Source: Desulfatiglandales bacterium
Lineage (GTDB): Bacteria; Desulfobacterota; DSM-4660; Desulfatiglandales; Desulfatiglandaceae
Direction: 5' to 3'
NCBI GenBank assembly: GCA_963662465.1
Contig: OY759599.1
Coordinates: forward strand, 5,664,001-5,728,000
DNA length: 64,000 nt
The notes below the pieces were generated by a model that did not search any database, was not told the DNA's origin, and saw only the letters and a list, made by a program, of their open reading frames with translations. The position numbers and the translations under genes were made by a program. Positions 9,718 to 54,400 of the stretch are shown here, piece by piece (position 1 is the stretch's first letter; each line of letters opens with the position of its first letter).

Positions 9718-10185
9718 CTATGAAGTCGACATCAGGATATTGATCTGCTGGTCCGTCATGTCGATCCCATCCTTGAAAACATCGAGAGTCCGATAGAAAA
9801 CCTGTTTTTTTATCCCTTCGGCCAGCACATTGTAGGTAAACAAAATCTGCCGCTTGTGGCCCCTGACCAGCCGTCCTATGTTCAGCTTTTCGTTGAGCTG
9901 TTCCAGATCGTCATCATCCAGAAATTGAGCACCAAGCCGTCCCAGGGCATAGGCCTGAAGGCTGAAGCAGTTAATGAATCCCATGGACAGGGGAATCCGG
10001 TAGAAAAATACCGCCACAAAGGAAAGACCCATCTGAAAAATGAGACAGTTATCACGTTCCCGAATGATAAAGTTCCGCTCCTCTATCCATTTTTTGACCT
10101 GCCCCTTCAGGATTGGCGAGGGACGCTCTTCCGGAAGGAAGTTGATAAAGGCGCCGGTTTCCGATTCAGGCGGAAGGGTTTTCAT
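9718..10185 (-). CDS. Hypothetical protein, YbjN/T3SS-chaperone-like fold suggested
   Basis: ATG at 10185 after GGAGG; LEQLNEKLNIGRL...ILFTYNV...GI...F pattern. Confidence 0.5.
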   Translation of the reverse strand: MKTLPPESETGAFINFLPEERPSPILKGQVKKWIEERNFIIRERDNCLIFQMGLSFVAVFFYRIPLSMGFINCFSLQAYALGRLGAQFLDDDDLEQLNEKLNIGRLVRGHKRQILFTYNVLAEGIKKQVFYRTLDVFKDGIDMTDQQINILMSTS

Positions 10186-10981
10186 CTGTATCAGCCCTCC
10201 CATCACCCGCTAGATAATAACCGGTCGCCCTTCTGAAAGCTTCCGAGGTTTTTGCCCCAGCGTAGCCGTCCACTTTCACATAGACCCCCGGAAGGGTATT
10301 TAGAAATCCCTGGAGGCCCGCGGCATGCGACGTTTTTTCCCGGGGTGCATATCTCAAAAGCGGCATTGCCGTTTCAGGCGGCGGGGCTTCCAACTCCGGA
10401 TCAAAGACCGCCAGGCCTTTCTCCGCCATTCTTCTCAATACCACGGCCGCCCCCATCTGGCGGGATACCGCCGTGTTGGAAAAGGTGCCGTCAGCCACAT
10501 ATTTACCGCGGGCGTAGTGTTGGGAATAACTCCACAAGTAGGGGGAAAGGACCTCCGGATGCCATTTTCGATACCCCCATCCATTGTATCCTTCCAGCTT
10601 GTAAAGGGTCCCTGGAACGCTCCAATCGTTCCAGCGGTCCATCCGCTCCAACCGAAGGGCGTCCATGGCGCTTTCCTCCCAGGTGAAGGGCGGAGTGCCG
10701 GTGCGTGGATGGCCCGAAGGCACGTGTATCGTTCTTTTTGTTAGGGGATCACCATTGTGCAAGTGCCGGTCAAACCCTGAAGACGCCTCCATCAGATGAA
10801 TCACCGCAATCACAAACCAGGGGATTTCAAGCACGTCGGCCACCCGCTGGTAACGTCCCAGATTTGAAACGATTCTTCCTACAATTGACGATACTTCCGC
10901 TGTCCGGGTTTCCCTGATGATGCAGGTGTCGAACAAACGCCGGTAATCCGCTCGCAACCCCTCGGTCAATTTCATGAACAT
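10166..10981 (-). CDS. Lysozyme-family protein (COG5526-like) with C-terminal peptidoglycan-binding motif
   Basis: IPWFVIAVIHLME, HLHNGDPL..RT.HVP.G.P, LEGYNGWGY, SPYLWS, GKYVADG; C-terminal LQGFLN...VDGYAGAKT. Confidence 0.85.
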   Translation of the reverse strand: MFMKLTEGLRADYRRLFDTCIIRETRTAEVSSIVGRIVSNLGRYQRVADVLEIPWFVIAVIHLMEASSGFDRHLHNGDPLTKRTIHVPSGHPRTGTPPFTWEESAMDALRLERMDRWNDWSVPGTLYKLEGYNGWGYRKWHPEVLSPYLWSYSQHYARGKYVADGTFSNTAVSRQMGAAVVLRRMAEKGLAVFDPELEAPPPETAMPLLRYAPREKTSHAAGLQGFLNTLPGVYVKVDGYAGAKTSEAFRRATGYYLAGDGRADTDENPSA

Positions 10982-11179: not shown

Positions 11180-11980
11180 ATGACCGATTGCAACCGCATA
11201 ACCGTAAGCCGACAGGAACTCGAACGGCTCTTTGCCCTTTACCATAACCGTCAATGGGTTCATCCGGATCCCCTCGAATTTCTGTATTTGTACCGGGAAA
11301 AAAAGGACCGGGAAATGGTGGGGCTCATCGCCTCTTCCCTGGCCTACGGTCGGGTGACCCAGATTTTGAAAAGCGTATCCACCGTGCTTGAAAAAATGGG
11401 GCCTTCCCCCTGTGATTTTGCCCTGTCATCCACTGATGCCACACTTGAAAAGACCTTCGCGGGGTTTAAACACCGGTTTACTACGGCGAAAGATCTTGTA
11501 ACCCTCCTGCGGGGCGCCGGGTCGGTTTGCAAACATTATGGTTCTTTGTACAACTGCTTTATGGAAACCTACCGTGACCGGCAAGACACCGTCCATGAAG
11601 CACTGTGTTTTCTGGTGAGCGAACTGAGAAAAGCGAGCGGCGGAAGCGCCAACAGTCTTCTACCATTGCCGGAAAGAGGGAGTGCAAGCAAAAGACTGCA
11701 CCTTTTTCTTCGCTGGATGGTGCGAAACGATCAGGTGGATCCGGGCGGCTGGCATGATGTGAGCCCGAGCAAACTCATTGTTCCGCTTGACACGCACATG
11801 CACCGCATCTGCTCACAGCTCCATATGACCGCCAGAAAACAGGGAGATCTGAAAACGGCCATGGAAATCACCCATGCATTCAGGGAACTGGCGCCGGAAG
11901 ATCCCGTCAAATACGATTTTGTCCTCACCCGGCTCGGCATTCGCAAAGACTGCGATCCGGGGGAATTGTTTTCAAATTAA
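11180..11980 (+). CDS. TIGR02757/DUF2400 family protein (HhH-GPD-like)
   Basis: HPDPLEF, LAYGRV.QI, SASKRLHLFLRWMVR, VPLDTH, PEDPVKYDF. Confidence 0.92.
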   Translation: MTDCNRITVSRQELERLFALYHNRQWVHPDPLEFLYLYREKKDREMVGLIASSLAYGRVTQILKSVSTVLEKMGPSPCDFALSSTDATLEKTFAGFKHRFTTAKDLVTLLRGAGSVCKHYGSLYNCFMETYRDRQDTVHEALCFLVSELRKASGGSANSLLPLPERGSASKRLHLFLRWMVRNDQVDPGGWHDVSPSKLIVPLDTHMHRICSQLHMTARKQGDLKTAMEITHAFRELAPEDPVKYDFVLTRLGIRKDCDPGELFSN

Positions 11981-12867
11981 AGGGCCCGGGACCATTCCGG
12001 TCGGAGATCGATATTCCCCGCCAGGGCGCTGTCAATCTGGGCCAGGGCCGCGTCCTTTCCCTTGGGAAGCCGGGCCTTGATGGGCAGATAATTGGAAGCA
12101 TGGTTAGAGAAAAACATCCCTCTACTGAGCTGGGTATTGGCGATCATCTCTCGCAATTCAACCAGGGTTTCCTTTTCGTTAAGGAGCCGAAAGTCACCCC
12201 GTTTGTATTCATCATGGAGTGGGGTTCCCGGCATCACCATGACGGTGAGGGCCCCCACGTAATTGGGATCCATGGCGCTCAAAACTTCCCCCGTGGCCCT
12301 GGCGTGCTGAAGGGAGAGCTTCGGGTCATTTCCCGCAATGCCCAGGAGTACCGTGACGGAGAGCTTGATGCCCGCTTCCCGGACCTTTCGGCCCATGTTG
12401 ATGAGATGCTGGGCCGTTGCACCCTTTCGGATCTTTTTGAGCAGGGGATCATCGCCTGTTTCCACCCCCATATAAATAATGCCGAGCCCGTTATCATGAA
12501 GGGCTTTCAGGTCTTCGGGGCTTTTCATGTTGATCCCCTTGGCATTTCCATAGGCCCCCACCCGTTTCACCCAGGGGAGGTGTTCTCGAATGCGGTCCAG
12601 TATCCACATGAGCCGTTTCTGGGGAACGATCAGGGCATCCCCATCCATAAGGAAAACCCGATCCTGTCGTTTCATGTATTTGCCGGCAAAAAGGATATCC
12701 GATAGAATAATTTTATCGTCTTTGATAGTAAATCGTTTGTCGTTGTAGGTCCCACAAAAGGTGCACTTGTTATGGGAACATCCCAGGGTCACCTGAAGCA
12801 GGATGCTGTAGGCCTCACTGGGAGGTCTGATGCAGTTGCCGTCATAATGCATCCCTTCACTTTCCAT
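11977..12867 (-). CDS. Radical SAM protein
   Basis: IRPPSEA.S.LLQVT.GCSHNKCTFC (CxxxCxxC); FLMDGDAL; SNHASNY. Confidence 0.92.
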   Translation of the reverse strand: MESEGMHYDGNCIRPPSEAYSILLQVTLGCSHNKCTFCGTYNDKRFTIKDDKIILSDILFAGKYMKRQDRVFLMDGDALIVPQKRLMWILDRIREHLPWVKRVGAYGNAKGINMKSPEDLKALHDNGLGIIYMGVETGDDPLLKKIRKGATAQHLINMGRKVREAGIKLSVTVLLGIAGNDPKLSLQHARATGEVLSAMDPNYVGALTVMVMPGTPLHDEYKRGDFRLLNEKETLVELREMIANTQLSRGMFFSNHASNYLPIKARLPKGKDAALAQIDSALAGNIDLRPEWSRAL

Positions 12868-12903: not shown

Positions 12904-12974
12904 GGGCGGACACACAGGTCCGCCCCTACGATCGGTTGCATTTTCATGGGCAAACACGGGGGTCTTGCCCCTAC
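12904..12974 (-). repeat. Two tandem GTAG-type REP hairpins
   Basis: GGGCGGACACACAGGTCCGCCCCTAC (12904-12929) and GGGCAAACACGGGGGTCTTGCCCCTAC (12948-12974), both followed by GATCGGT. Confidence 0.85.
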
Positions 12975-14008
12975 GATCGGTGGCGGCGCCAATGGACCTT
13001 CAGGGCTTTCAGAGGGTTCTTGGCGGAATCCATGACCGCCGTGGGTTCGAAACCGCTGTGGAGCATGCAGTGGGTGCATCGAGGATCCCGACCCACGCCG
13101 TATTTTGACCAGTCCGTGTTTTCCATCAACCCCCGGTAAGTATCTTCATAACCATCGTTGATAAGGTAGCAGGGTTTTTGCCAGCCAAAAATGTTCCGAG
13201 TGGGATTCCCCCAGGGGATACAGGCGTAATCCTGGTTTCCTTCCAGAAAATCCAGATACAGACTGCTGTGATTGAACCGCCAGGACTTTTTTTTCCCCAG
13301 CATAAAAATGGATCGAAATAATTTTTTGGCTTCATCCCGATTGAAAAAATGTTCCTGGTCCGATGCATTTTCATAGTTAAAAGCAGACGCAACGGTCATG
13401 GCTTCCACCTGAAGAGACGTCAGCAGATCAAACAATTGACCCGCACTCTCGGCGGTTTCCCCCTTAAACAGGGTGGTGTTGGTGGTAACCCGAAACCCTT
13501 TTGAAATTAAAAGCCTAATGGCCTTTACAGCATTTTCAAATACCCCTTTACGGCCCACCCTTGCGTCATGACGTTCGTTGAGCGCATCCAAATGAACATT
13601 AAATGTGAGATAAGTATTGGGTTCGAACTCATCAATCCGTTTTTGAACGAGAAGGGCATTGGTACACAAGTATACGAATTTTTTCCGGGCCGCAAAGCCT
13701 TTGGCTATTTCCGCTATTTGTGGATGCATGAGGGGTTCACCGCCCGCAATGGACACCACGGGGGCGCCACATTCCTCCACCGCAGCCATGCACGCATCCA
13801 AGCTCATGCGTTTTTTAAGGATTTCCTCCGGGTAGGCAATTTTTCCGCAGCCTTTGCAGGCCAGGTTACAGCGGAAAAGAGGTTCAAGCATCAGCACCAG
13901 GGGAAATCGCCCGTTGCCGTTTGAACTGAACCGTTTTCTACCGACATAGGCGCCGATACGCGCCTTTTGAATAAATGGTATTCCCAAATACAGCTCCTTA
14001 TTCCTCAA
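12971..14008 (-). CDS. hpnH: Adenosyl-hopene transferase (hopanoid radical SAM)
   Basis: RFPLVLMLEPLFRCNLACKGCGKI, VSIAGGEPLMH, CIPWGNPTRNIFGWQKPCYL, DPRCTHCMLHSGFEPTAV. Confidence 0.95.
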   Translation of the reverse strand: MRNKELYLGIPFIQKARIGAYVGRKRFSSNGNGRFPLVLMLEPLFRCNLACKGCGKIAYPEEILKKRMSLDACMAAVEECGAPVVSIAGGEPLMHPQIAEIAKGFAARKKFVYLCTNALLVQKRIDEFEPNTYLTFNVHLDALNERHDARVGRKGVFENAVKAIRLLISKGFRVTTNTTLFKGETAESAGQLFDLLTSLQVEAMTVASAFNYENASDQEHFFNRDEAKKLFRSIFMLGKKKSWRFNHSSLYLDFLEGNQDYACIPWGNPTRNIFGWQKPCYLINDGYEDTYRGLMENTDWSKYGVGRDPRCTHCMLHSGFEPTAVMDSAKNPLKALKVHWRRHRS

Positions 14009-14736
14009 TTATCATGCGTTTCCATTTTACACAGTTGCTTCATCAGGTCCAGTGCCTGTTGCCATGGTCCTTCCCGCCCGCTACAGGGGGGCATGCAGAT
14101 CAAAATTTTTCGCAACTGGTCGCAGGCCGGCCCCGGTTCTTCATCTTCCAAATACGCCTTGGCGAGTCCCAGACGATTTTCAAAAAAATCGGGATCCCGC
14201 ACAACGGCGCGTTTGTAATGGGCCAGCGCCTTTTCCAAATCTCCAATGCTGACAGGGGGTCCGGGCGCCCGCAGATAGAGTTCCCCCAGCATTCGATCCG
14301 GACCGCCATGATCCAGTTGGGGACTCAGGCGGGCCGCCTCAAGGGCAGACCGTTCGATGACCGGCGCCAGAGCCAACCCCCTCAAGGTATCGTTTTCAGC
14401 TTCAAGTCCAGCCAGGTAAGCGGCCAGGTAATGGGCCATACCGTTTTCAGGGTCACGGGCAACAGCTGCTTCGGCCAGCTTGCGCCCTTTCAGAGCGTTT
14501 TCAAGTCGTATGACCCGGGTTTTTCCGTTTTGTGCCAGCACGGCGTAACAGCGAGCCGCCTGAACTGCCGCTCCCGATTTTCCAGCGTCCTTTTCCCACA
14601 ACACGGCCTGATCCCGGGTGCAGGGAGACCACAGAGTGGTTTCTTCCCCGTCCGGCAACCGCATGACGTCCCGGGTCGAGGCGCAGGCCGTGAGGAATAA
14701 AAAGATCATCCACAGGCTACGGAATAAAACAGCCAT
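14005..14736 (-). CDS. TPR/TatT-like lipoprotein (BstC-like)
   Basis: Lipobox FLFLTAC; HYLAAYLAG, DHGGPDRMLGELYLRAPGPPVSIGD.EKA..H pattern of TRAP T-component-like proteins. Confidence 0.7.
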   Translation of the reverse strand: MAVLFRSLWMIFLFLTACASTRDVMRLPDGEETTLWSPCTRDQAVLWEKDAGKSGAAVQAARCYAVLAQNGKTRVIRLENALKGRKLAEAAVARDPENGMAHYLAAYLAGLEAENDTLRGLALAPVIERSALEAARLSPQLDHGGPDRMLGELYLRAPGPPVSIGDLEKALAHYKRAVVRDPDFFENRLGLAKAYLEDEEPGPACDQLRKILICMPPCSGREGPWQQALDLMKQLCKMETHDN

Positions 14737-15556
14737 TTTCTTTATCGCTTAACCGAAATTGCAACAGGTCCAGGTCCGCGGGTCCAAAGCCGTCCGTTTG
14801 TAAGAGGGTCAGAAGTTTTTCGGCGCTTGCGTCCCCTTTCATCCCCTGCAGGACCCCGGCCAGTTTTTTCATGGTTTCATTGGCTGAACCAAACCAGATC
14901 ACCGGGCTTACGGGCAACTCCCGGGAAGTGTGCATCACTTTGATCTTTTTACCAACCGACAGGGTTTGAACGGTTCCATACTGAACCCGATCCAGCACCA
15001 CCCCGCTGGTTTTGCCCTTAACCACCGAGCGGAGAGATCTCAGGGGACGAAAGGTCCCCTCAAGGGTAAAGGGCAATCGATCCGGAAGGCATCCAAACAA
15101 TAAGCAGGCGGCCGCCTTGTTTTCAAACAGCATGTTCCCAAGAATTTTGCCGTTCAGGGATTGCCAGTCCGATCCCGCATCCTCATGGGCCATCAGGCGC
15201 CAGACATCTTTTATAAATCCGCCCGGCCGCGTAGCGGCCATGGGCGTCATTTGAAAACGGCGGGCATACCGGGCGTAAACCCCTAATTGTACAATTCCCC
15301 ATACCGGCGGCGAGGATGTCAGAAACGCCAGGGCAGGTTCCAGTTGGTTGAAATAACGACCCCGAAGGGTTACGCCAGGCCCCATTTTCCGCTGAATATA
15401 ATCAGCCAGGGCATCCATCGCCGGACGCGCTTCCGCTTCCGTTCCCGGCTGACCCGGCTGGATCACCGCAAAATCCAGATTGCCCCCCTCGGCATGCCCA
15501 TTCACGGACCCGAAAAGCATGGCAAAAAAGAACAATACGGCCCCATATTTTTTCAT
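14717..15556 (-). CDS. Periplasmic substrate-binding protein, PhnD-like (BstB-like)
   Basis: Sec signal MKKYGAVLFFFAMLFGSVNGHA; SBP-like tail (VVKGK..GVVLD, VMHTS.ELPVSPV, LLTLLQTDGF). Confidence 0.65.
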   Translation of the reverse strand: MKKYGAVLFFFAMLFGSVNGHAEGGNLDFAVIQPGQPGTEAEARPAMDALADYIQRKMGPGVTLRGRYFNQLEPALAFLTSSPPVWGIVQLGVYARYARRFQMTPMAATRPGGFIKDVWRLMAHEDAGSDWQSLNGKILGNMLFENKAAACLLFGCLPDRLPFTLEGTFRPLRSLRSVVKGKTSGVVLDRVQYGTVQTLSVGKKIKVMHTSRELPVSPVIWFGSANETMKKLAGVLQGMKGDASAEKLLTLLQTDGFGPADLDLLQFRLSDKENGCFIP

Positions 15557-15564
15557 GGCATTCC

Positions 15565-15592
15565 TCACTTTTCACTCTTCACTCTTCACTTT
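15565..15592. repeat. Heptamer tandem repeat (TCACTYT)x4 at a gene junction
   Basis: TCACTTT-TCACTCT-TCACTCT-TCACTTT; includes the MMPL stop codon. Confidence 0.75.
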
Positions 15593-18383
15593 TCGTAAAC
15601 CGTCCCATCAATTTCAGAATCGGCGGCAGCACGAACAGGCACGCCAACATGCCCATCAAAGAGCCCAGCACCATGATGCTTCCCAGGCTGGCCAGCCCCC
15701 GGTGGTGCGCAAACAGAAGCCCGCCGAAACCGATCATGGTGGTGGTAAAACTCAGGGCCACGGCGGTGGGGGTACTCGTGTAAAAAAGTCCGCCAACCCC
15801 GGGCTGCCTGGGACGATCCGCCAGCAGAGGTTCAATTTCCCGCCACCGGGCCAGGAAATGAACCCCCCCGTCCACGCCGATGGCAATGAGAATGGGAATG
15901 GCAAAAAAGTTGGCCAGATTGAAATGAAGCCCCAGCCACCCCATCAACTCCAGCAGCCATAGCATACTTACGCCCAAAGGTAAAATGGTAAGCATCACGT
16001 ATCGCACCGAACGGGCATAAGCCCAAAGAATCAGACACACCAACAGGATGGTCAGGGCCGCCGCCCGGAGAAACGTACTGTGCATCAACTGGGCCGACTC
16101 ATATACCCCCACGGGAACCCCACTCACATGAGGGGCCACCTTCCGCAGGGCCGCCACAAAATGGCCCAGCGCATCAAAATCCCATACGTCTCCCGTGGGA
16201 CTGATTTTGATCTGGTAGCTCCCATCCTTGCCCACATAGAGATCTCTGAGGCTGGGCGGAAGGTTTTCGGGCGTCACCGATTTGGCCCCGAGCCATCGTT
16301 TTAATTGTTTAAGGGATGTCATGATATCCCGCGCCAGTGCCGTCTCCAACCCATCAAGGCGACCTGCCCGGTCGGGATATCGCTCCAGTTGTTCAATGGC
16401 GGCAGCCACGGCTTCCATATTTTTTCCCACGAGGGGAAGTTCTTGTTTAGCCCCGGCAACAAAGAGCTTTTCCTCCAGGTTTTCCAGGGCCTCGGACAGC
16501 CGTAAAAGCGCTGCAATAAGCGATTTCGGGTTGAGAGGATGTTTTGTCGGGAATTGATCCGGGACTTTTTCGAGGGCCCTGGCCGCTCTTTGGTATTCCG
16601 CTGATTTTTCTTCCTGTTTATCCGGAATAAAATCGAGAACGCTTTCCACCCGGCCCACGGAGGGAATGGTCTTGAACTTCCGGGCCAAATCTTTGACCTG
16701 TTCCAGGGTTTTGGCCGAAATGATGGCATACCAGGTGCTTTCGTCGGCGGTTTCAACCAGTATCCTTTCATATTCCACGGATTCCAGCCCTCGGGCCTGA
16801 AGTTCCAGCAGATTGTAGTTGAAGCGCACCTTGAAGAGCCCGGGAAGGGCCAGAAGGGTCAGGACCAGGAGAATGCTCAACACCAGTTTAGGGCGTTTAA
16901 AAAAACGCTCCAGAAAGGGCATGGCGCTAATCCTGGGCATGGAGGAAGGGAAAAGCTTGTTTTTGCCGGCCAACAGAAGCATGGCGGGCAACACCATCAT
17001 CATGGATGCCAGGCAGAGGAGTACGCCGGTGCCGCCGATAAGACCCAGTTGCGCCAGGCCGATGAAGTCAGACCCCAGAACCGAATAAAATGCGCAGACC
17101 GATGTAACAGCCCCCAGAATCACCCCGGGGCCGGTTCTGAAAAGAGACGCCCGAACCGCATCTTCCACGCCGAGACCCTTGCCATGAGCTTCCACATAGC
17201 GCATGACCATATGAATGCCGAAATCCACGCCGATGCCCACCAGCACCAGGGCAAAAATCACGGACAGCAGATTCAATTCTCCCACGGTGACCGTGGCAAA
17301 CCCGAAACTCCAAGCCATGGCCAGGACCAGAGAGAACAACACCAGAAACGGCCTGAGCCATCCATGGAGGACAATCATGAACAGCACCCCCACAAACAGT
17401 ACGGCAATGACGGACGCCCGCGTCATGTCCCGGTCCGTGGTTTCCATCTCATCCGCCTGAAGCGCCGGTCTTCCGGTGAGCCCCACAGCCAGACCGGGGA
17501 ATTCCGCGCGGGTCGCGTTAAGGGCCTCGCGCACCACCGCAAGCGGCTTTCCGATGACATCCAGGGCGCCGAAATCCTTGATCGGCAGGATGCGCATAAC
17601 CAGCAATCGGCCGGAAGCGGAAAAGAAATACTCGCCTCCACCCTGGCTGAGATCAAACAGCGAGCAGTCGCTTTCCTTTCCCGACAAAGCCTCATCCACG
17701 TTATCCAAAAGGTTCCCGAGCAGCCCGAGGGCCTGCCCCATCATCGCAGGGTCCATATCAGTGACAAGTGACGCCCCCTGCCCCCCGACCTCCGACCTCT
17801 GACCTCTGACCTCTGACCTCCGACCTCCGACCTCCGACCTCTGACCTCCGACCTCCGACCCCTGCCCTTCAAGAAGCCCCGCCGCCATGCCAAAGAAACC
17901 GGCCAGGGACCCGTCCCGAACCCACTGATCCACGAAAGGCGCTAGAAAACGAAGGGTTCCGGAAAGGGTTTTTGCCTCTTCGGGAGAAGCAAAAAGGAGC
18001 GCGCCGTCGCCCAGACCCCGGGCCAAAATACGGTAGTAAACCGCCTGAATAAGTGTTGGGTGTTCCGCGAGACGCACATTCAACTGTTCCGCAAACTGAA
18101 TGGCCTGTTTTTTTCCTGCCTCGGTTCCGCCTGTTTGAATGACCACGAAAAGATATTCCTGGTCTCCAAAATTCTCAAGGTGGTCCAGATATGTTTTTTG
18201 AAAGGGAACGGAGGGTGAGACCAGGCAATCCTGATTGCTGTTCAGGTGTAGAAAAAAAACGGAAACGAGCGCTGAAACCAATGCCAGCACAATCCCTGAA
18301 ACAATAATAGCGCCGGGATGGGCATGAACCATGCGCCAAAGTGGGTTCAGCAAGTAATTCCGTCGTTTGGGGACTGGGTTCAT
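15579..18383 (-). CDS. hpnN: MMPL/RND hopanoid transporter (HpnN/BstA-like)
   Basis: Two RND-type TM bundles; GLTGRPAL.ADE, LVGIGVDFGIH, FNYNLLELQ, LIAIGVDGGVH, HRGLASLG; ATG at 18383 overlaps the hpnO stop (ATGA). Confidence 0.85.
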   Translation of the reverse strand: MNPVPKRRNYLLNPLWRMVHAHPGAIIVSGIVLALVSALVSVFFLHLNSNQDCLVSPSVPFQKTYLDHLENFGDQEYLFVVIQTGGTEAGKKQAIQFAEQLNVRLAEHPTLIQAVYYRILARGLGDGALLFASPEEAKTLSGTLRFLAPFVDQWVRDGSLAGFFGMAAGLLEGQGSEVGGQRSEVGGRRSEVRGQRSEVGGQGASLVTDMDPAMMGQALGLLGNLLDNVDEALSGKESDCSLFDLSQGGGEYFFSASGRLLVMRILPIKDFGALDVIGKPLAVVREALNATRAEFPGLAVGLTGRPALQADEMETTDRDMTRASVIAVLFVGVLFMIVLHGWLRPFLVLFSLVLAMAWSFGFATVTVGELNLLSVIFALVLVGIGVDFGIHMVMRYVEAHGKGLGVEDAVRASLFRTGPGVILGAVTSVCAFYSVLGSDFIGLAQLGLIGGTGVLLCLASMMMVLPAMLLLAGKNKLFPSSMPRISAMPFLERFFKRPKLVLSILLVLTLLALPGLFKVRFNYNLLELQARGLESVEYERILVETADESTWYAIISAKTLEQVKDLARKFKTIPSVGRVESVLDFIPDKQEEKSAEYQRAARALEKVPDQFPTKHPLNPKSLIAALLRLSEALENLEEKLFVAGAKQELPLVGKNMEAVAAAIEQLERYPDRAGRLDGLETALARDIMTSLKQLKRWLGAKSVTPENLPPSLRDLYVGKDGSYQIKISPTGDVWDFDALGHFVAALRKVAPHVSGVPVGVYESAQLMHSTFLRAAALTILLVCLILWAYARSVRYVMLTILPLGVSMLWLLELMGWLGLHFNLANFFAIPILIAIGVDGGVHFLARWREIEPLLADRPRQPGVGGLFYTSTPTAVALSFTTTMIGFGGLLFAHHRGLASLGSIMVLGSLMGMLACLFVLPPILKLMGRFTKSEE
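17778..17868. repeat. Heptamer tandem repeat (CYGACCT)n inside the MMPL CDS
   Basis: Ten perfect CYGACCT units at 17785-17854 plus degenerate flanking units; encodes GSEVGGQRSEVGGRRSEVRGQRSEVGGQG. Confidence 0.95.
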
Positions 18384-19756
18384 GCGGTTCTGGCCGTTCG
18401 GAGTCCCATGTTTTTGACCGTTGCCCATGCGGATCCGGGAAATTTATGGGCATCCTTCAAAACGTCGTCCAAGGCGCCCAGAAAATAGTCGGCATCGGCC
18501 TGGTTGATCACCAGGGGCGGAAGAATTTTCACCGTGTCGAGACCATGCCCGGCCACCTGGGTCAGAATATGGTGTTTCTCCAACAGGGGCATAGTAATCA
18601 TCTGGCAAAAAAGATCCACGTTCATTTTGTGCAGCAGTTTCCATCCCGTCTTGAGAGAAAGAGATGCGGGTTTGCCGAACTGAATACCGATCATGAGCCC
18701 TTTTCCACGAATTTCGTGAACCAGCTCATAACGTTCGGCCATTTCACTGAGCCCTTTTTCCAGATAAACCCCTATCGTTTCCGACTGTTGGACCAGGTTT
18801 TCCCGTTCAATCACCCGCAAGGTGGCCAGACCGGCTGCCATGGCCAGATCATTTTGACCAAAAGTGTTGGAATGGGCAAAACACCGGTCCATGCTGTCAA
18901 AGAGCTTTCCATGGATGTTGCGGCGTGTTATTACAGCGCCGACGGGAATATATCCGCCGGAGAGGGATTTTGAAATCACCAGGATATCGGGCGTCACATC
19001 CCAATGGTTCACCGCAAACATGCGCCCCGTTCGGCCCAATCCGGTTTGAACTTCGTCAGCAATCAGCAGTGCGCCATACCGGTCGCAAAGGCTTCGGGCG
19101 CCGGGAAGGTAGTCCGAATCCGGAACAAACACCCCTTTGCCCTGGATGGGTTCCACAATAAAGGCAGCCGCATCCCCTCCTGAAAGAGCGTTTTCGAGGG
19201 CCTCTAAATCGTTGAAGGGAATGGGCACGCAGTTGGGCAACAGGGGTTCGTTGCGTCCCCGGAACTCCTCATTCCCATTAACGGAAAGGGCGCCCAGCGT
19301 CAACCCGTGAAAGGCCCGTTCACAATAAATGATTTTGCTTTTTCCCGTGGCCTGCCGCGCCATCTTGAGGGCCCCTTCCACCCCTTCGGCTCCCGAATTG
19401 GTGAAAAACACCGCTTCCAGATTCCCCGGAGCCAGACCGGCCAGTGCCTCGGCCAGAAGTCCCGAGATGATGCCCACATCCATCTGCACCATACTGGCCG
19501 GCGCCATATCGATAACATCTTTTAAGACCTGAGCTACCAGGGGATGGTTTCTTCCGATGTTGAACACACCGAACCCGGCCAGAAAGTCAAGTACCTCCCG
19601 GCCCTGTTCATCCGTCAGCCGCGCCCCTCGGCCCATGGTATAATTTCGATTGTAACCGATCACCTCCAGCACTCGCACAAATTGGGGGTTCACATAGCGA
19701 CGATGCAGCGCGTAGGTTTCGTTGAGACGGCTTTTTACAAGAGATGCAATATTCAT
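18380..19756 (-). CDS. hpnO: Class III aminotransferase (aminobacteriohopanetriol synthase-like)
   Basis: YVNPQFVRVL..IG, LDFLAGFGVFNIGRNHP, FFTNSGAEG, IVEPIQGKG, DEVQTGLGRTG, SKSLSGG; hopanoid context; likely start MNIASL. Confidence 0.85.
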   Translation of the reverse strand: MNIASLVKSRLNETYALHRRYVNPQFVRVLEVIGYNRNYTMGRGARLTDEQGREVLDFLAGFGVFNIGRNHPLVAQVLKDVIDMAPASMVQMDVGIISGLLAEALAGLAPGNLEAVFFTNSGAEGVEGALKMARQATGKSKIIYCERAFHGLTLGALSVNGNEEFRGRNEPLLPNCVPIPFNDLEALENALSGGDAAAFIVEPIQGKGVFVPDSDYLPGARSLCDRYGALLIADEVQTGLGRTGRMFAVNHWDVTPDILVISKSLSGGYIPVGAVITRRNIHGKLFDSMDRCFAHSNTFGQNDLAMAAGLATLRVIERENLVQQSETIGVYLEKGLSEMAERYELVHEIRGKGLMIGIQFGKPASLSLKTGWKLLHKMNVDLFCQMITMPLLEKHHILTQVAGHGLDTVKILPPLVINQADADYFLGALDDVLKDAHKFPGSAWATVKNMGLRTARTA

Positions 19757-19902
19757 TATGTTATAAGATTCGCCCGGCGCAATTCGATAGAAAGCTCCAG
19801 CGAAAAGAGTTCCTTTCATTTTTTTTGGGGAAGTGTAAGAAAACCAAGGGGTCATGTCAAGGTGCAAAGCGAAGAGGGACCAACCCGCGCACATATCTTG
19901 TT

Positions 19903-21027
19903 TTACCCGCTTTTCTCCCCATAAGCCCGCCCCTTCCATTTCGCGCCCTTTCCCTGCCAATAGCGAATGGCCGAGGTCCAGGTCATGGCCAGGAACAACA
20001 TGCCGATTACGGGCATGAAAAAAGCCCATTTCCAGGACAACCGGTAGAACTTCAATGTGGGGAGATAGCCCAGCATCATAAAACAGAAGCCGCACAGGGA
20101 TCCCATTACGGCCGTAACGGATGGGAAAAAGAGACCCATAACAGGCATTCCAAACATAAGGATCATAGCGCCGGTCACCAACAGCAACAGGGTTACAGTG
20201 TAGTGCAGCTGATGAAAGGCGGTTCTGGCCACCATGTTCCAGATGACCCCGGGCCGGTCATAGGCCCGAAGGCTTAAGGCGGAGTGAGAAAGTCCGATCC
20301 AGGTGCGGCCTCCAATGGATTTGACCTTCCGGGCCAGGGCGCAGTCGTCGATCAGCTGCCCCCGTACCGAAGCAAAACTCCCAATGGCCCTGAGCATGTC
20401 GGTTCTAATCAGGATGCATCCGCCCGCTGCCGCTGCCACCCGGGGGAAAGAGGAGTTGGAGAGGCGGAAGGGGTAGAGGAGCTTGAAAAAGTAAATGAAC
20501 GCCGGCATCAAGAGTCGTTCCCACGGAGAAACCATGCGGAGGGACGCCATCAGGGAAATCAAATGGACCCGTCTGGTCATCATTTCCCGGCGAAGTCTTA
20601 CAAGGATGCCCGGTTTGAGTCCTATATCCGCATCCAGCAGGAGTACAAGGGGTGTATCCACCTGTTGGAATCCCTGCTCAAGAGCCCACAGCTTGCCGCT
20701 CCAGCCTTTGGGAAGGGGCCTTCCCGAAACAATTTTCAAATCGATTTCCGCCATATTTTCGGCAAGGGATGTCGTTTTATCATCGGATTGATCGTCCACC
20801 AGGATCACCTTAAGATGATTTCCCTGCGCCATGACGCCGGAAAGCGTGGTTTGAATCACTTCAGCTTCATTCCTCGCAGGAATAAGAACCGTGATGTTGC
20901 TCAAATCTTCCCGGCAATCGTCCGGTTCCCCATCCAGAAATTCCCGAGTGGACCAGGGCCGCCAGGGAAGAAGAAGGATGATGAGCCAAAGAAACGCTCC
21001 GATGAAGGTTAGAAGGGTCAAGTACAT
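19903..21027 (-). CDS. hpnB: Hopene-associated glycosyltransferase (GT2)
   Basis: IPARNEA, LP.GWSGKLWAL.QG, LLLDADI, PAFIYFF.LLYPF, AAAAGGCILI, LIDDCALA, WNMVARTAF.QL, WKGRAY. Confidence 0.88.
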   Translation of the reverse strand: MYLTLLTFIGAFLWLIILLLPWRPWSTREFLDGEPDDCREDLSNITVLIPARNEAEVIQTTLSGVMAQGNHLKVILVDDQSDDKTTSLAENMAEIDLKIVSGRPLPKGWSGKLWALEQGFQQVDTPLVLLLDADIGLKPGILVRLRREMMTRRVHLISLMASLRMVSPWERLLMPAFIYFFKLLYPFRLSNSSFPRVAAAAGGCILIRTDMLRAIGSFASVRGQLIDDCALARKVKSIGGRTWIGLSHSALSLRAYDRPGVIWNMVARTAFHQLHYTVTLLLLVTGAMILMFGMPVMGLFFPSVTAVMGSLCGFCFMMLGYLPTLKFYRLSWKWAFFMPVIGMLFLAMTWTSAIRYWQGKGAKWKGRAYGEKSG

Positions 21028-21881: not shown

Positions 21882-23600
21882 TTATAATAAGACGAGAAGC
21901 CCCGCCAGCAAAAAATTGGCTTCCACCAGGGCCTCCAGGGCAACCCCGGTAGAGAGCCATTGCTTTTCATAAGAAAAAAGACAAAGCAGCAGGGTCAACA
22001 GGGGGATGAGCATAAGACAAAAAAGTGAATTTACCAGAGCCAACAGGGTGCTGAATATCAGCAGCAGCGCCGTAGCCAGGAGAACCATTTTGAACAGGCG
22101 CAGCGTCTTTTTTTCACCCAGGGTAATGGGCAGGGTCTCAGCGCCCACCATCAGATCCCCCTGAAGCTGGAACAGGCTGAAAAGAATCGCCCTGGCGTAA
22201 CTAAATGAAAATACGACAAGGCAAGCCACCAAAATACTCAATACCGGACCGGATCCGCCACTGAAAAGGGGCAGAATTACCATAACCGCCATCCAGGCAA
22301 GCGCTTCGGACAGACTTCGTGATCCGGGAATATCTTTTATTTTAACAAAGCGATAGCGATTTTTAGTTCCTTCGGGAATCAGGGGGATACTGTATACAAT
22401 CCCCAAAAGGCTCAAGCCGATCAGGGCCATAAGGGTCCCCGGCCCCACCCAATAAGAAAGAAGCAGGGCAATGCCGATGGCAACCGATCCCATAAGGATC
22501 AACAAGCCTTTGGTGTTATTTTGAAACGTGGCGCGATCGGGATCATTGTAGGAAGCCGCCCCCTTGTCCAGAAACCGGTTGAAAACATGCATGGCATAGA
22601 TATAAAGGGCCGCCATGAAGGGAAAAATCAGACCGGTTTTTCCGCCCGCAAGACACAAGGCCGCATACGCGAAGGAAAAAGCGCCGAATGCCGCCGCCAG
22701 GTTGCTCAACACCAGGAATCGAAAAACACGCTTGACCCGGCGGACAAACGGCGCTTCTTTTCGGTCCCGGATGTTTTCTATTTCCCTCAGGACGTTTTTG
22801 ATAAGCCAGTGAGGGGTGGAGGCGCCGGCCGTCAAACCGATCACATCCATTTGCGAAAGGACTTCCCGGGGCAGTTCCTTTTCCGTTTCCACATGGAATG
22901 TGGGAAGGTTTTGTTCTTCGGAGATTTTGGCCAGTCGCTGGGTGTTGGCGCTGTGATACCCACCGACCACCACGACCCCTTCCACCTGTCCTTTAAAGGT
23001 GCGGACTTCCTGTTGTCTTTCATGAGTGGCATCGCAGATGGTATCAAATACCTGGATGTCCGGAAACCGATCCCGCAGGGCCGAAACAATCGCTTTAAAA
23101 TCTTCATCATCCTGGGTGGTCTGAGCAACCACAAAGGGATGCGCCAGTTGAGGGAGACCTGCCACATCCTCTGTTTTCTGGATGACATGGGCGGGTTTCT
23201 TGCTGTACCCCATAAGTCCGATCACTTCAGCGTGGTTTTTGTCGCCCACAATGATGGTGGAGCGATCCTTGCCGGACTGGTGGCGGATAATGGCCTGAAC
23301 CCGGGTAACCTTGGGGCATGTGGCGTCGATGACCTTGAGCCCCGAATTCTGGAGCGCTTCCCGTTCATGGGGCGGAATGCCATGGGCCCGAATGATAATA
23401 CGACCGGCGGTAAGTCCGGCGGCGTCATCAATGGCTTTGATGCCCTTGGTTTCGAGGAGATTCAGAACTTGTTTGTTGTGGATGAGCGGCCCAAAGGTAA
23501 ACAAGGGGCCCTCCTTTTTATTGGATTCGGCCATGACCATTTCCATGGCCCGGCGCACCCCCATGCAGAAGCCCGCTGTCTTGGCCAATACGACTTTCAT
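21882..23600 (-). CDS. ispH: IspH (HMBPP reductase) fused to a UbiA-like membrane prenyltransferase domain
   Basis: AGFCMGV, LIHN, IRAHG, DATCPKV, HAEV, QTT, TICDAT, SANT, TAGASTP; then ~290 aa polytopic with NRFLD...DPDR, VYS.P, IKDIPG, D...G.ETLP..LG. Confidence 0.92.
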   Translation of the reverse strand: MKVVLAKTAGFCMGVRRAMEMVMAESNKKEGPLFTFGPLIHNKQVLNLLETKGIKAIDDAAGLTAGRIIIRAHGIPPHEREALQNSGLKVIDATCPKVTRVQAIIRHQSGKDRSTIIVGDKNHAEVIGLMGYSKKPAHVIQKTEDVAGLPQLAHPFVVAQTTQDDEDFKAIVSALRDRFPDIQVFDTICDATHERQQEVRTFKGQVEGVVVVGGYHSANTQRLAKISEEQNLPTFHVETEKELPREVLSQMDVIGLTAGASTPHWLIKNVLREIENIRDRKEAPFVRRVKRVFRFLVLSNLAAAFGAFSFAYAALCLAGGKTGLIFPFMAALYIYAMHVFNRFLDKGAASYNDPDRATFQNNTKGLLILMGSVAIGIALLLSYWVGPGTLMALIGLSLLGIVYSIPLIPEGTKNRYRFVKIKDIPGSRSLSEALAWMAVMVILPLFSGGSGPVLSILVACLVVFSFSYARAILFSLFQLQGDLMVGAETLPITLGEKKTLRLFKMVLLATALLLIFSTLLALVNSLFCLMLIPLLTLLLCLFSYEKQWLSTGVALEALVEANFLLAGLLVLL

Positions 23601-50853: not shown

Positions 50854-51452
50854 AAAAGCGCACATTCTTAAAGGCTCTGTTTCTGATCACAATCCTGTGG
50901 ACCCTGGTCGGCTGTACCCTGGCCAAAGTGGACGTCAATGTGGTCAGCGAGCGAACGGCCCTGGAAAATCAGGTTTTGGGTTCCTACAACGCCCTTTCCG
51001 ATGATGTCCTTCTGGTGGCCTCGGTCAGGGGCGTGGACCCTTCCGGCAAAATCAAAACGCCGCCTCGAAAAAGCCGTGAATATCAAAATGCCGTGGAAGC
51101 CATGGAGACCCTGGCGTTTCATGGGGATGATGTGGACGCCTTTAAGCGCCTGGGGTGGGTGGGGGAAAACAACCTTGGGTTGCTGACCCCCTTTCCCATG
51201 AACAAGGAAAAAGCACCCGATGATCTTCAGGCATTTGCGGCCCGGTATCCCCAGGGGGAGTTCGTCTCGGTGGTGGAGCAGGTGAACCGTGCCCGGGAAG
51301 TGGTCATGATGCGGGTAGTGGAAACCAATGCGGATTTTACCGAAAAAGACCTGCCCCGGATCAAAGGGGTATTTGCCAAACTCAACCGTGAAAATGCGCT
51401 GCCCGGTGAGCGGGTGCAGGAGGAGGACGGGTCGTGGACGATGATGCCTTGA
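50850..51452 (+). CDS. Lipoprotein with DUF1318 (YdbL-like) domain
   Basis: ATGA overlap with the upstream stop; lipobox TLVGC; ERTALENQVLG; FK..G.VGENN.G.L, V.QVN.AR, A.PGE.VQ..DG.W. Confidence 0.8.
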   Translation: MKKRTFLKALFLITILWTLVGCTLAKVDVNVVSERTALENQVLGSYNALSDDVLLVASVRGVDPSGKIKTPPRKSREYQNAVEAMETLAFHGDDVDAFKRLGWVGENNLGLLTPFPMNKEKAPDDLQAFAARYPQGEFVSVVEQVNRAREVVMMRVVETNADFTEKDLPRIKGVFAKLNRENALPGERVQEEDGSWTMMP

Positions 51453-54400
51453 GGGCGGAGGTCAGAGGTCAGAGGCCAGAAACCAGAGGTCAGAGGACAG
51501 AGGTCAGAGATCCGACTTCCGACCTCCGACTTCTGACTTCCGTCATGGTGGTTATGGCGGTTTTGCTTTCGTGTGCGGGACCCAAAACCGTTGGGCCGGT
51601 TGAAAAAACATCGGAGGCGGTTGATTCGGTGGTTTTTGCCCAAAGGGAGAAAGATCGAAAAGCGCCGCTGCGCCTACCCGTGAACCTGCCCGTTCAAGTG
51701 AGCTTCGAGGCGGATCCCGTGCGGTATGGTGCATTGTCGGGAGACGGAAATACCCTGGCCTATGTTCTGGAGAATCAGAGCGGATCATCCCTTTGGATCC
51801 GACCGAGAGATTTCACCCTTGGGACTCTCCCTCAAAAACGGCTTGAGGGCATGGGTAGAATTTCGGCGCCGGCTTTGTCGCGGGACGGTTCAAGCATCGT
51901 TTTTGTGGCCACGGATCATGATGCCAAGGGCGATATCTTTTTGCTTTCAACCCAAGGGGGATCAGACCCCAAACGACTTACCGGAAGAGACACGGCGGAC
52001 GGGGCGCCTACTTTTTCACCGGACGGCAACCGCATCTATTACCACCGGTTGTTAACGGAAGAAATCTTACCCCACCTGGCCTATATGGATTTGAGCGCCG
52101 GCGCCAAAGGCCCTGAAACCCTTCGAGAGGGGGCCTTTCCTTCCATCTCCCCGGATGGTGAGCGTCTGGCCTTTGTGTCCTTTGAAAAGGATTCCGGCGG
52201 CGACATCCAGGTTCTTGACCTGAAAACCGGGAAAGTGACGCCGGTCACCGCCGGTTCTCCGCAGGATCTGTATCCCACCTGGTCCTTGAATGGAAAATGG
52301 ATCTATTTTTCCCGCTTTGACCTGGATACCAATAAAGACAACGCCGTCATTTGGCGGGCTGCCCCTGATGATGCCGGTCTTTGGGCCTACCCCCTCACAT
52401 CGGAAACCTTTTCCGCCTACCAGCCCATGGCCACGTCATCGGAGTTGCTGTTTCTGTCAAACCGGAACGGCACGGCAAATCTCTGGCGGCTCCCTTCGGG
52501 AGGAGAAATTCCCATCGGCGAAGACGCACCAATCCAGATGGAACGGGCCCGAATCCTGGCCGCCCAAATACCTCAAAAGGATGCCCTGGCCCTATTGGCC
52601 TATTATAAGGTGCTGGAAGACTTCAGTCGGGAGATACACTACGGCGGAAAAACCCTTTATGAGATCGGTAAGCTTTACCAGCGCATGGGGCGAGAGAAGC
52701 AGGCGGTTCAAACCTATGAACGACTGATGAAAGATTTCGGAAACGCCTATCCCGAAAAAGCCCTGGCCGCCATTCGGCTGACGGAGATTCAGGCGGAGAA
52801 TGCCTGGAAAGCGGCGCCCACTGATTTTAAGCGAAAACAGATCCTGTTGAATGCTCAAAATCGCATCCAGGCGCTTTTGAAAACCGGAATCCCTTCACCA
52901 TCGGACACTGATGCTCTGGATTCGGCGCGCATCCGGGCAAGGGGGTTGATGGTTCAAGCCCAATTGCTGGAGGAATTGGACCCAAACCCCGATTCCCTTG
53001 GAAACGCCATTGCGCTTCTGGACCAGGTTGCCGGCATGAAGAATGTGGCATCTGATTTGAGGGCGGAAGCCATATTTCAAAAGGCGCGGATCAACAGCCG
53101 TATGGGGCAGGCCCAGGCGGTAATACCCGCCTACCTTTCCATCGTCACAACATACCCCGATACCCCATGGGCCGACGCCGCGGTAGAGCGGATCATCGAC
53201 AATTTCTTGTCGGATTCTTCTGGAAATACGGTGGAAACCCGGATTCAAGCCCTGGCCCGGCTGGCGGAAACCCATCAAGAATCAGTCCCCAAACTGGCCA
53301 TGGGCGCCTTTAACCGCATGGGAGATGAAGCCTTTGCGGCGGGGGACCGGCAGCAAGCCAAACGATGGTACCGGGAAGTCCTGAACCGGTATGCGATGTC
53401 AACCGGCTCTCCCACAAAAGAGAACCTGCCCCCCACACAGGTGGCAGCAGCCCGGCTGGCCCTGGCTGAAATCCTATACCGGGAAGAGCTCTTCCGCCAA
53501 GCCCTGGATCTCTACGAAACGGAAATGGCCCATCGACCCTATGAAGACCGACTCTATACCCTTGCCCGGGCCGCCTATATCCAAAAATCCCTGGCAGCAG
53601 CCGATTTTCTGTTCAATTTGGGCGAAATTCCGGCGGCCCGCAAACGCTATGGGGATCTCATTCGAGAAAATCCTGACCTTGTTCAGGCCCATCGCGGGTA
53701 TATCAAATGCGCGGCCGCCATGAAACAGATCGACCCTTGTCTGGAACGCTACCGGGCGCAGCTGAAAACAGATCCCGAAAATCCAATCCTCCTCTATGCC
53801 GCGGGCCTCTGCCTCACCTACCGGGAAGGGAAAAAAGCCCATGCCGATGCACGTACGCTCATCACAAAAGCCATTTTGAAACAGGGGCAGACCGCTTACT
53901 TCCACCAGACCCTGGGATACCTCTTCGAGGTATCGGAAACGGTTTATGGTGAACCGGGAGGACTTGAAAAAGCCCTTTTGAGCTATCAGAAGGCCTATTT
54001 TTTAAACAACCCCGAACAAGACCCCCAAAACAGCGCCAACCTGGCCCTCAATCTGGGGAACATCCATTTTCTCCTGGGCCAGTATGGCAGAGCCCTGACA
54101 CGGTACCAGGAGCGGCTTGAATCAAAGGCGCCCTTTGATCATGAGGATACGGAAATCCTCTTTTACCGCCGGTTGGGGGGAGCCGCCTTTCAGATGAATG
54201 ACCCGGCCGTATCCATCGACGCCTACACCCGGGCACTCCAGCTCATCGATGACCGCATCGACCCCGGACGTCCGTCGGAACTCATGGGAAAACTAAATAC
54301 GTTCATTTTCGACCGGATACTGACCCCGGCCTTGAAGCGCTCGAAAAATGCCAAAGATATTGAGGCCATGACCCAACGCCAGCGCCGTATCCATAAAGCG

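Follow-up and report, generated by a model that had tools for sequence, protein, structure and literature searches.

What carries hopanoids across the periplasm once an HpnN-type transporter has taken them from the inner membrane? HpnN is reportedly needed for the outer-membrane localization of hopanoids (Doughty 2011, cited in PMC10942540). The shuttles proposed to act after it (HpnM/HpnS and HpnT) rest on predictions, according to the available part of PMC12324291. We studied a 64,000-nt stretch of the genome of a Desulfatiglandales bacterium (contig OY759599.1, positions 5,664,001 to 5,728,000; hereafter the window), in which a hopanoid (hpn) operon encodes an HpnN-like MMPL/RND transporter (RND), a BstB-like binding protein (B) and a BstC-like TPR lipoprotein (C). 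Homology and predicted folds suggest that these three proteins probably form an undescribed hopanoid export relay, leading from the HpnN-like RND through B to C as an outer-membrane lipoprotein. The five genes in question are the following:

18380..19756, minus strand: hpnO-type class-III aminotransferase (PF00202), putatively for the aminobacteriohopanetriol step
15579..18383, minus strand: HpnN-like MMPL/RND inner-membrane transporter, 934 aa (TIGR03480, 549 bits; best PDB match 5KHN)
14717..15556, minus strand: BstB-like periplasmic substrate-binding protein, 279 aa, with a signal-peptide-like N-terminus (PF12974-like; NF045601, 75 bits; 7T1M)
14005..14736, minus strand: BstC/TatT-like all-helical TPR lipoprotein, 243 aa, lipobox LTAC with Cys18 (NF045602, 82 bits; 7T1S)
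12971..13987, minus strand: hpnH, adenosyl-hopene transferase, likely TTG start at 13987, longest open reading frame (ORF) from 14008 (TIGR03470, 515 bits; cut-off 225)

The minus strand carries all five genes, in the order given by the original prediction, and two of the overlaps that it described could be read in the sequence: ATGA at 18380-18383 and the 20 nt shared by the B and C genes at 14717-14736. A further ATGA claimed for C and hpnH at 14005-14008 has to be withdrawn, as the letters there are TTGA. The start of hpnH is more probably the TTG at 13987, because an AAGGAG motif lies 6 nt upstream of it and position 2 of TIGR03470 aligns to residue 9 of the long ORF; with this start, C and hpnH do not overlap and are separated by a 17-nt gap. 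The spacing between the RND and B genes is 22 nt. We assigned the hpnO label because of gene context: no HpnO model was among the NCBIfam matches listed for the aminotransferase, the best being PigE (450 bits, below cut-off). In G487, a Methylococcus-like genome, the protein that matches it best (54%, E 1.5e-166) is encoded directly next to hpnN, with a cyclase gene ∼3.5 kb away.

B and C resemble BstB and BstC both by sequence and by predicted fold, as profile and structure comparisons of 14717-15556 and 14005-14736 confirmed. The only significant PDB sequence match of B was BstB (7T1M, E 2.9e-15; next match E 0.64), and the best match of C was BstC (7T1S, E 4.7e-16). Foldseek ranked the same two structures first for the AlphaFold2 models of B (predicted local distance difference test (pLDDT) 85.5; template modelling (TM) scores 0.73/0.79) and C (pLDDT 86.9; TM scores 0.66/0.69). 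Both proteins score far under the equivalog cut-offs of these families (75/350 bits for NF045601 and 82/350 bits for NF045602). In an alignment of 26 sequences, at least 90% retain the lipobox Cys18 of C, which is followed by Ala, not Asp; the rule by which an Asp after the Cys directs sorting comes from E. coli and may not hold in this host. At the C positions matching BstC Arg132 and Met170, Glu occurs in 29 of 31 aligned C proteins each (6 and 9 of 11 further members), and in the column of BstC E86 it is found in 2 of 31 (7 of 11). Among the conserved residues of C are E114 and E152. One may speculate that the conserved acidic residues of C could meet an amino-hopanoid tail.

The original description of the system as a BstABC-like triad fits B and C as homologues of BstB and BstC, but not the RND, which is HpnN-like by score and, less clearly, by phylogeny. 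It reaches 549 bits on TIGR03480 (HpnN; cut-off 752) and 373 on NF052374 (cut-off 1100), below both thresholds, compared with 283 bits on NF045600 (BstA; cut-off 1400), and its best PDB match is HpnN of B. multivorans (5KHN, E 9e-64). Scores under the TIGR03480 cut-off are common, as 33 of the 46 HpnN-like matches in cyclase-bearing genomes of our phylum sample likewise fall below it. Three trees placed two HpnN-like RNDs from Desulfobacterota as the sister group of the triad RNDs, with moderate Shimodaira–Hasegawa (SH) support (98, 87 and 94). Approximately unbiased (AU) tests rejected their union with methanotroph BstA alone (p 0.0175) and did not reject that with all three Bst-type RNDs (p 0.23). 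Judged by its sequences, the system is HpnN plus BstB/C-like partners and not BstABC. As a separate observation, residues ∼172-205 of the RND (window ∼17770-17870, minus strand) form a low-complexity insert of RSEVGGQ-like repeats in the first periplasmic domain; the ORF comprises 934 aa, compared with ∼898 in many relatives.

We searched the whole genome for the hopanoid and the sterol pathway. The assembly is a single 8.16-Mb contig with an estimated completeness of 100%, and its nearest named relatives are Desulfatiglandales records and NaphS2. It encodes a squalene/phytoene synthase and one triterpene cyclase, which scores above the cut-off for squalene–hopene cyclase (SHC, 796 bits) and carries the motif DVDDT; the gene after shc is hpnG-like, judged by its position and likeness. 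No squalene epoxidase (PF08491) was present in the genome, an oxidosqualene cyclase query matched shc only, and nothing in the genome matched Erg24- or P450-type queries taken from a sterol locus. One HpnN-like RND was found at E≤1e-60. The genome's sole MlaC/MlaA pair sits in an ordinary mlaE-F-D-C-A operon, with an HpnM score of 76 against a cut-off of 160, and DUF2147/HpnT (PF09917) is absent from the genome.

Scanning a genome collection, we retrieved 37 related loci, including one Maridesulfovibrio record, one Desulforhabdus record and one labelled Methylophilaceae. The RND gene was directly upstream of B in 32 of the 35 loci with at least 1 kb of upstream sequence, and C followed B directly in 31 of the 32 with 400 bp or more of downstream sequence. 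An hpn gene was present in 32 of the 37 loci (hpnH in 28, hpnO in 20, shc in 5), in agreement with the conservation of the trio beside hpn genes that the original prediction implied; the remaining five are contigs of 2.4-4.5 kb. Because RND-B and B-C adjacency and the hpn genes recur over these loci, the arrangement exceeds chance. A cyclase was found in 36 of the 37 B-clade genomes, compared with 54 of 301 in the phylum sample, and all readable cyclase motifs were DxDD (motif obtained from 29 of the 30 loci returned).

The same link was seen at the family level. Of 151 genomes sampled from the family to which the Maridesulfovibrio record belongs, 11 encoded both B and a cyclase, four B only, four a cyclase only and 132 neither (Fisher p 1e-10, which is overstated, as kin are not independent). 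In 12 of the 15 B genomes of that family, B-C was followed by hpnH or by hpnA-hpnH, with the RND adjacent in 11. Source names place the clade in M. bastinii (presumably the renamed Desulfovibrio bastinii), M. hydrothermalis, M. zosterae, M. frigidus and Desulfovibrio inopinatus. Some Desulfovibrio species produce aminotriol and aminotetrol, according to the available part of PMC5100885, which also cites a paper whose title concerns hopanoid production by D. bastinii.

We also noted that the record labelled Methylophilaceae (L078) contains the entire hpnO-RND-B-C-hpnH block and a single SHC, and represents either an inter-phylum transfer or a mislabelled bin. In a 400-genome sample of its class, each of the three other usable B-bearing genomes had two cyclases and a canonical HpnN, and in two of the three we read an OSC-type DCT motif.

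If B and C act after HpnN, which genes occupy their place elsewhere? The B-C module is a minority type: of the 54 genomes in the phylum sample that have a cyclase, only 2 contain it, and 46 have an HpnN-like RND (13 above cut-off). No match to B or C was seen in any of 32 HpnN-like loci examined, drawn from the 44 outside G000 and G129. These 32 and three family-level loci make up 35 HpnN loci without B, of which 20 contained an MlaC/HpnM-like gene, 12 a TolC-like gene and one MlaA. By profile search with a Pfam check, MlaC-, TolC- and MlaA-like genes were found in none of 51 B loci. In the Maridesulfovibrio record's family, four genomes have a cyclase but no B, and three of these carry an above-cut-off HpnN and MlaC beside shc. 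Since MlaC/HpnM occurs in 0 of 51 B loci as against 20 of 35 HpnN loci without B, B and C appear to fill the slot of the shuttle.

The TolC-like genes (PF02321) deserve a remark of their own. They flank the HpnN-like RND in 12 of the 35 loci, often together with MlaC and an HpnL-like PF03706 gene, in many cyclase-bearing Desulfobacterota (L160, L162-L164, L166, L168, L170-L172, L174, L176 and also L158), and may mark another undescribed architecture for hopanoid export.

In the relay that we propose, HpnH, HpnG (encoded beside shc elsewhere in the genome) and HpnO would produce extended hopanoids, probably of the amino type, at the inner membrane, from which the RND, by analogy with HpnN, would lift them into the periplasm. 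B would ferry them over the periplasm, and C, whose lipid anchor probably sits in the inner leaflet of the outer membrane, would take and unload them. Together, B and C would take the part that HpnM/HpnS (MlaC/MlaA-like) or HpnT are proposed to play in other bacteria. The observations behind this proposal are homology, predicted folds, gene order, the link to shc, the lack of sterol genes in the genome and the lack of MlaC-type genes at the loci; we infer the cargo, the direction, the contact between B and C and the localization of C.

Several observations weigh against this relay. The composition of the trio varies: L075 lacks C, and L058, L059 and G770 lack an adjacent RND. Three genomes in which no cyclase was found (L224, L226 and L227) keep B by itself, flanked by ispH and hpnG, and have neither an RND gene nor C at these loci; B can therefore outlast the pathway, which suggests a relic or a repurposed remnant of a hopanoid locus. 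Bst-like genes also occur in three phylum-sample genomes in which no cyclase was found, namely G220, G065 (L039, G065:C60; BstB above the equivalog cut-off with BstC, at a contig edge in a 93% complete genome) and G265 (L040, G265:C3; a C-C-RND-B cassette accompanied by an OmpA-like lipoprotein and an ABC-2 exporter). Nor is a shuttle gene next to HpnN a requirement, as 15 of the 35 HpnN loci without B lack MlaC as well. Moreover, seven of the eight sequences used to build the MlaC profile belong to the 20 positives, and some of the B loci lie on short contigs. Pocket residues mapped by alignment gave no clear signal: the BstB cavity positions are hydrophobic at 14 of 19 sites in B, 18 of 19 in a BstB orthologue and 92% in equally hydrophobic PhnD-like controls, and the BstC cavity positions at 8 of 15 in C compared with 12 of 15. 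Finally, according to the available part of PMC10942540, BstA/B/C from Methylococcus favoured C-4 methyl sterols in a mixture of lipids that included hopanoids, so the BstB/C folds are not hopanoid binders by default; the same fold family binds fatty acids in the case of Es_TatT (available part of PMC11713862).

The original prediction had further seen in the trio a possible precursor of the sterol carriers, a view that our trees do not bear out. A profile search with B returned 530 clusters at 50% identity (E up to 0.001), and trees were built from full-length members of the best 150 of these 530, with 20 near-duplicate loci omitted. The hopanoid-operon B proteins formed one clade (SH 99), separate from methanotroph-type BstB, to which the nearest row was a protein from cyclase-less G065. 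A fully supported long branch divided the Bst-like family from PhnD-like proteins. The union of the B clade with methanotroph BstB alone was rejected by the AU test (p 9e-7), the B clade with a six-row BstB clade was borderline (p 0.044) and the C proteins with BstC gave p 0.06; with the p of 0.23 for the Bst-type RNDs, these are the weaker versions of the precursor claim. Long branches weaken all B, C and RND trees. As sampled, the sterol carriers would not derive from the hopanoid-operon B clade, and by these trees the two look like cousins, for which a deeper common origin is likely.

Could the trio serve some other purpose? B and C might carry a different lipid (a fatty acid, phospholipid, squalene or another isoprenoid) in the same membrane-remodelling job, with the RND exporting hopanoids with little help. 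The TatT fold binds long-chain fatty acids (PMC11713862, available part), and the cassettes in cyclase-less genomes, the orphan B of three shc-less genomes and pocket residues unlike those of BstB and BstC all point in this direction. However, nearly every clade genome (36 of 37) has a cyclase, the genes remain beside hpnH or hpnO despite rearrangements in several orders, and B never shares a locus with MlaC/HpnM (0 of 51), which makes this explanation unlikely in our view. Reversing the flow is another option, such that the trio recycles hopanoids or takes them up, with the outer membrane or the surroundings as their source, or that C is an inner-membrane accessory of the RND instead of an outer-membrane acceptor. 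PhnD-type and TatT-type proteins do stem from import systems (PMC10942540, available part), but the genes are interleaved with biosynthetic genes in producers, the genome has no second HpnN-like exporter, and, as far as the E. coli rule applies, the Ala after the lipobox Cys does not favour an inner-membrane C; we regard this as quite improbable.

Much less can be said for B as an ordinary phosphate/phosphonate-binding protein and C as a generic TPR lipoprotein that lie in the operon by accident. It is true that databases label the B-clade proteins as PhnD/SsuA or phosphonate ABC substrate-binding proteins and that the Pfam matches are PF12974 and TPR. However, BstB was the only significant PDB match for B and BstC the best for C, and a long branch separates the Bst-like family from PhnD-like proteins. 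The S-x-[ST]-G motif, which takes part in oxyanion binding, was found in 0 of 35 B-clade members compared with 18 of 22 outgroup proteins of the PhnD-like type, and the operon has no gene for an ABC permease or ATPase next to B. This explanation thus seems very improbable. A true BstABC sterol transporter, working on home-made or scavenged sterols, would share the RND-B-C order with bstA-bstB-bstC and the predicted folds of B and C with BstB and BstC. We nevertheless give it almost no credence: osc and squalene epoxidase are absent from a 100%-complete genome, the RND, B and C all miss the Bst equivalog cut-offs by a wide margin, the RND has a better score for HpnN than for BstA, and the B and C clades stand apart from methanotroph BstB/C.

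The hopanoid export relay therefore remains our preferred reading, and we incline, with some reserve, to a wider one. Anaerobic Desulfobacterota, including cultured Maridesulfovibrio, would export hopanoids by a third, undescribed periplasmic route of BstB/BstC fold. HpnN RNDs would be modular, with MlaC, TolC-plus-MlaC, lipocalin or BstB/C partners, and the BstB/C family would be a broad triterpenoid/lipid relay from which sterol and hopanoid carriers were recruited separately.

The full minus-strand order around the five genes is dus, an ispH-ubiA fusion, a GT2 gene, hpnB, the hpnO-type aminotransferase gene, RND, B, C, hpnH and a radical SAM gene, with these additional features:

19903..21027, minus strand: hpnB, hopene-associated glycosyltransferase, immediately upstream on the same strand and beyond the coordinates of the original prediction (TIGR03469, 383.5 bits; cut-off 379.25)
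19832..19860, minus strand: sigma-70-like site TTGACA-17-TACACT in the hpnB-hpnO gap, a possible promoter for hpnO-RND-B-C-hpnH (top of 14 consensus matches)
11977..12867, minus strand: radical SAM protein, 296 aa (PF04055; no NCBIfam family near its cut-off)

The sigma-70-like site scores 10/12 and is weak evidence for a promoter, as shuffled sequence averages 8.6 matches compared with the 14 observed. The radical SAM gene lies downstream of hpnH in many close relatives (75-95% identity); its product is possibly a hopanoid-modifying enzyme, or the association is mere synteny. The fusion gene (window 21882-23600, minus strand) encodes IspH (LytB) with a C-terminal UbiA-like prenyltransferase domain (572 aa), and stays upstream of the hpn genes in close relatives, with plain ispH beside the cluster in more distant ones. 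Elsewhere in the window, a 271-aa ORF (10166-10981, minus strand) had no Pfam or NCBIfam match at E≤0.1 and may be a lysozyme-like protein with a C-terminal peptidoglycan-binding motif, and a 2870-aa ORF (51434-60046, minus strand) is one of several longer than 1100 aa.

For the crossing of the periplasm after HpnN, the locus offers two small soluble-domain candidates in sulfate-reducer lineages. Their Methylococcus relatives have already been purified and crystallized, so that the published pull-down and microscale thermophoresis assays apply directly. If the relay is real, the BstB/BstC folds are not specific to sterols and bst-like genes cannot be used as sterol markers, and the paired sterol and hopanoid binders would allow study of how proteins discriminate between the two ring systems. 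In the library that we searched, no paper connected BstB/C-like genes with hopanoid operons. The available part of PMC12324291 recognizes a distinct clade of HpnN from Desulfobacterota, but the shuttles that it assigns are confined to alpha- and gammaproteobacteria, and Bst, phosphonate-binding or TPR partners go unmentioned there, although its Tables S1-S3 may list such domains near shc. PMC10942540 mentions, in its available part, deltaproteobacterial members of the BstC cluster without gene context. What is new here is the pairing of an HpnN-like RND with BstB/BstC-fold partners in hopanoid operons of anaerobic lineages, a system that is not a member of BstABC and whose role as its precursor our trees do not support.

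The closest known system is BstA-BstB-BstC of Methylococcus capsulatus (PMC10942540, available part; 7T1M, 7T1S; NF045600-NF045602), which has the same order of RND, PF12974-type binding protein and TatT-like lipoprotein beside triterpenoid genes. Here, in contrast, the neighbours are hpn genes, the genome has SHC only and no sterol genes (osc, smo, sdmA/B) are co-located. Identity to a close BstABC orthologue set (that of G487) is 26% for the RND, 22% for B and 39% over 132 aa for C. The sterol-head contacts differ as well, with BstB E118/Y120/N192 aligning to D117/W119/D189 in B and BstC E86 to Q69 in C. Whereas the HpnN-like RND described here is the genome's only one, the sterol-making genomes checked (G487 and G555) keep BstA and a canonical HpnN separately. 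C also shares the all-helical TPR lipoprotein fold of the TatT/TPAT lipoproteins (Tp0956; Es_TatT, 8G52/8G53; Foldseek ranks 4 and 8), a precedent for lipid binding, but no TRAP P/Q/M genes are found in the operon, its PF16811 score of 14.7 lies below the cut-off of 26.5, and BstC is closer. The proposed logic is the same as that of HpnN with the predicted HpnM/HpnS or HpnT shuttles (PMC12324291, available part; PMC13712982), in that an HpnN-family RND from a hopanoid locus precedes a periplasmic carrier and a lipoprotein of the outer membrane; the carriers in the present operon have unrelated folds, a binding protein and a TPR protein instead of MlaC, MlaA or a lipocalin.

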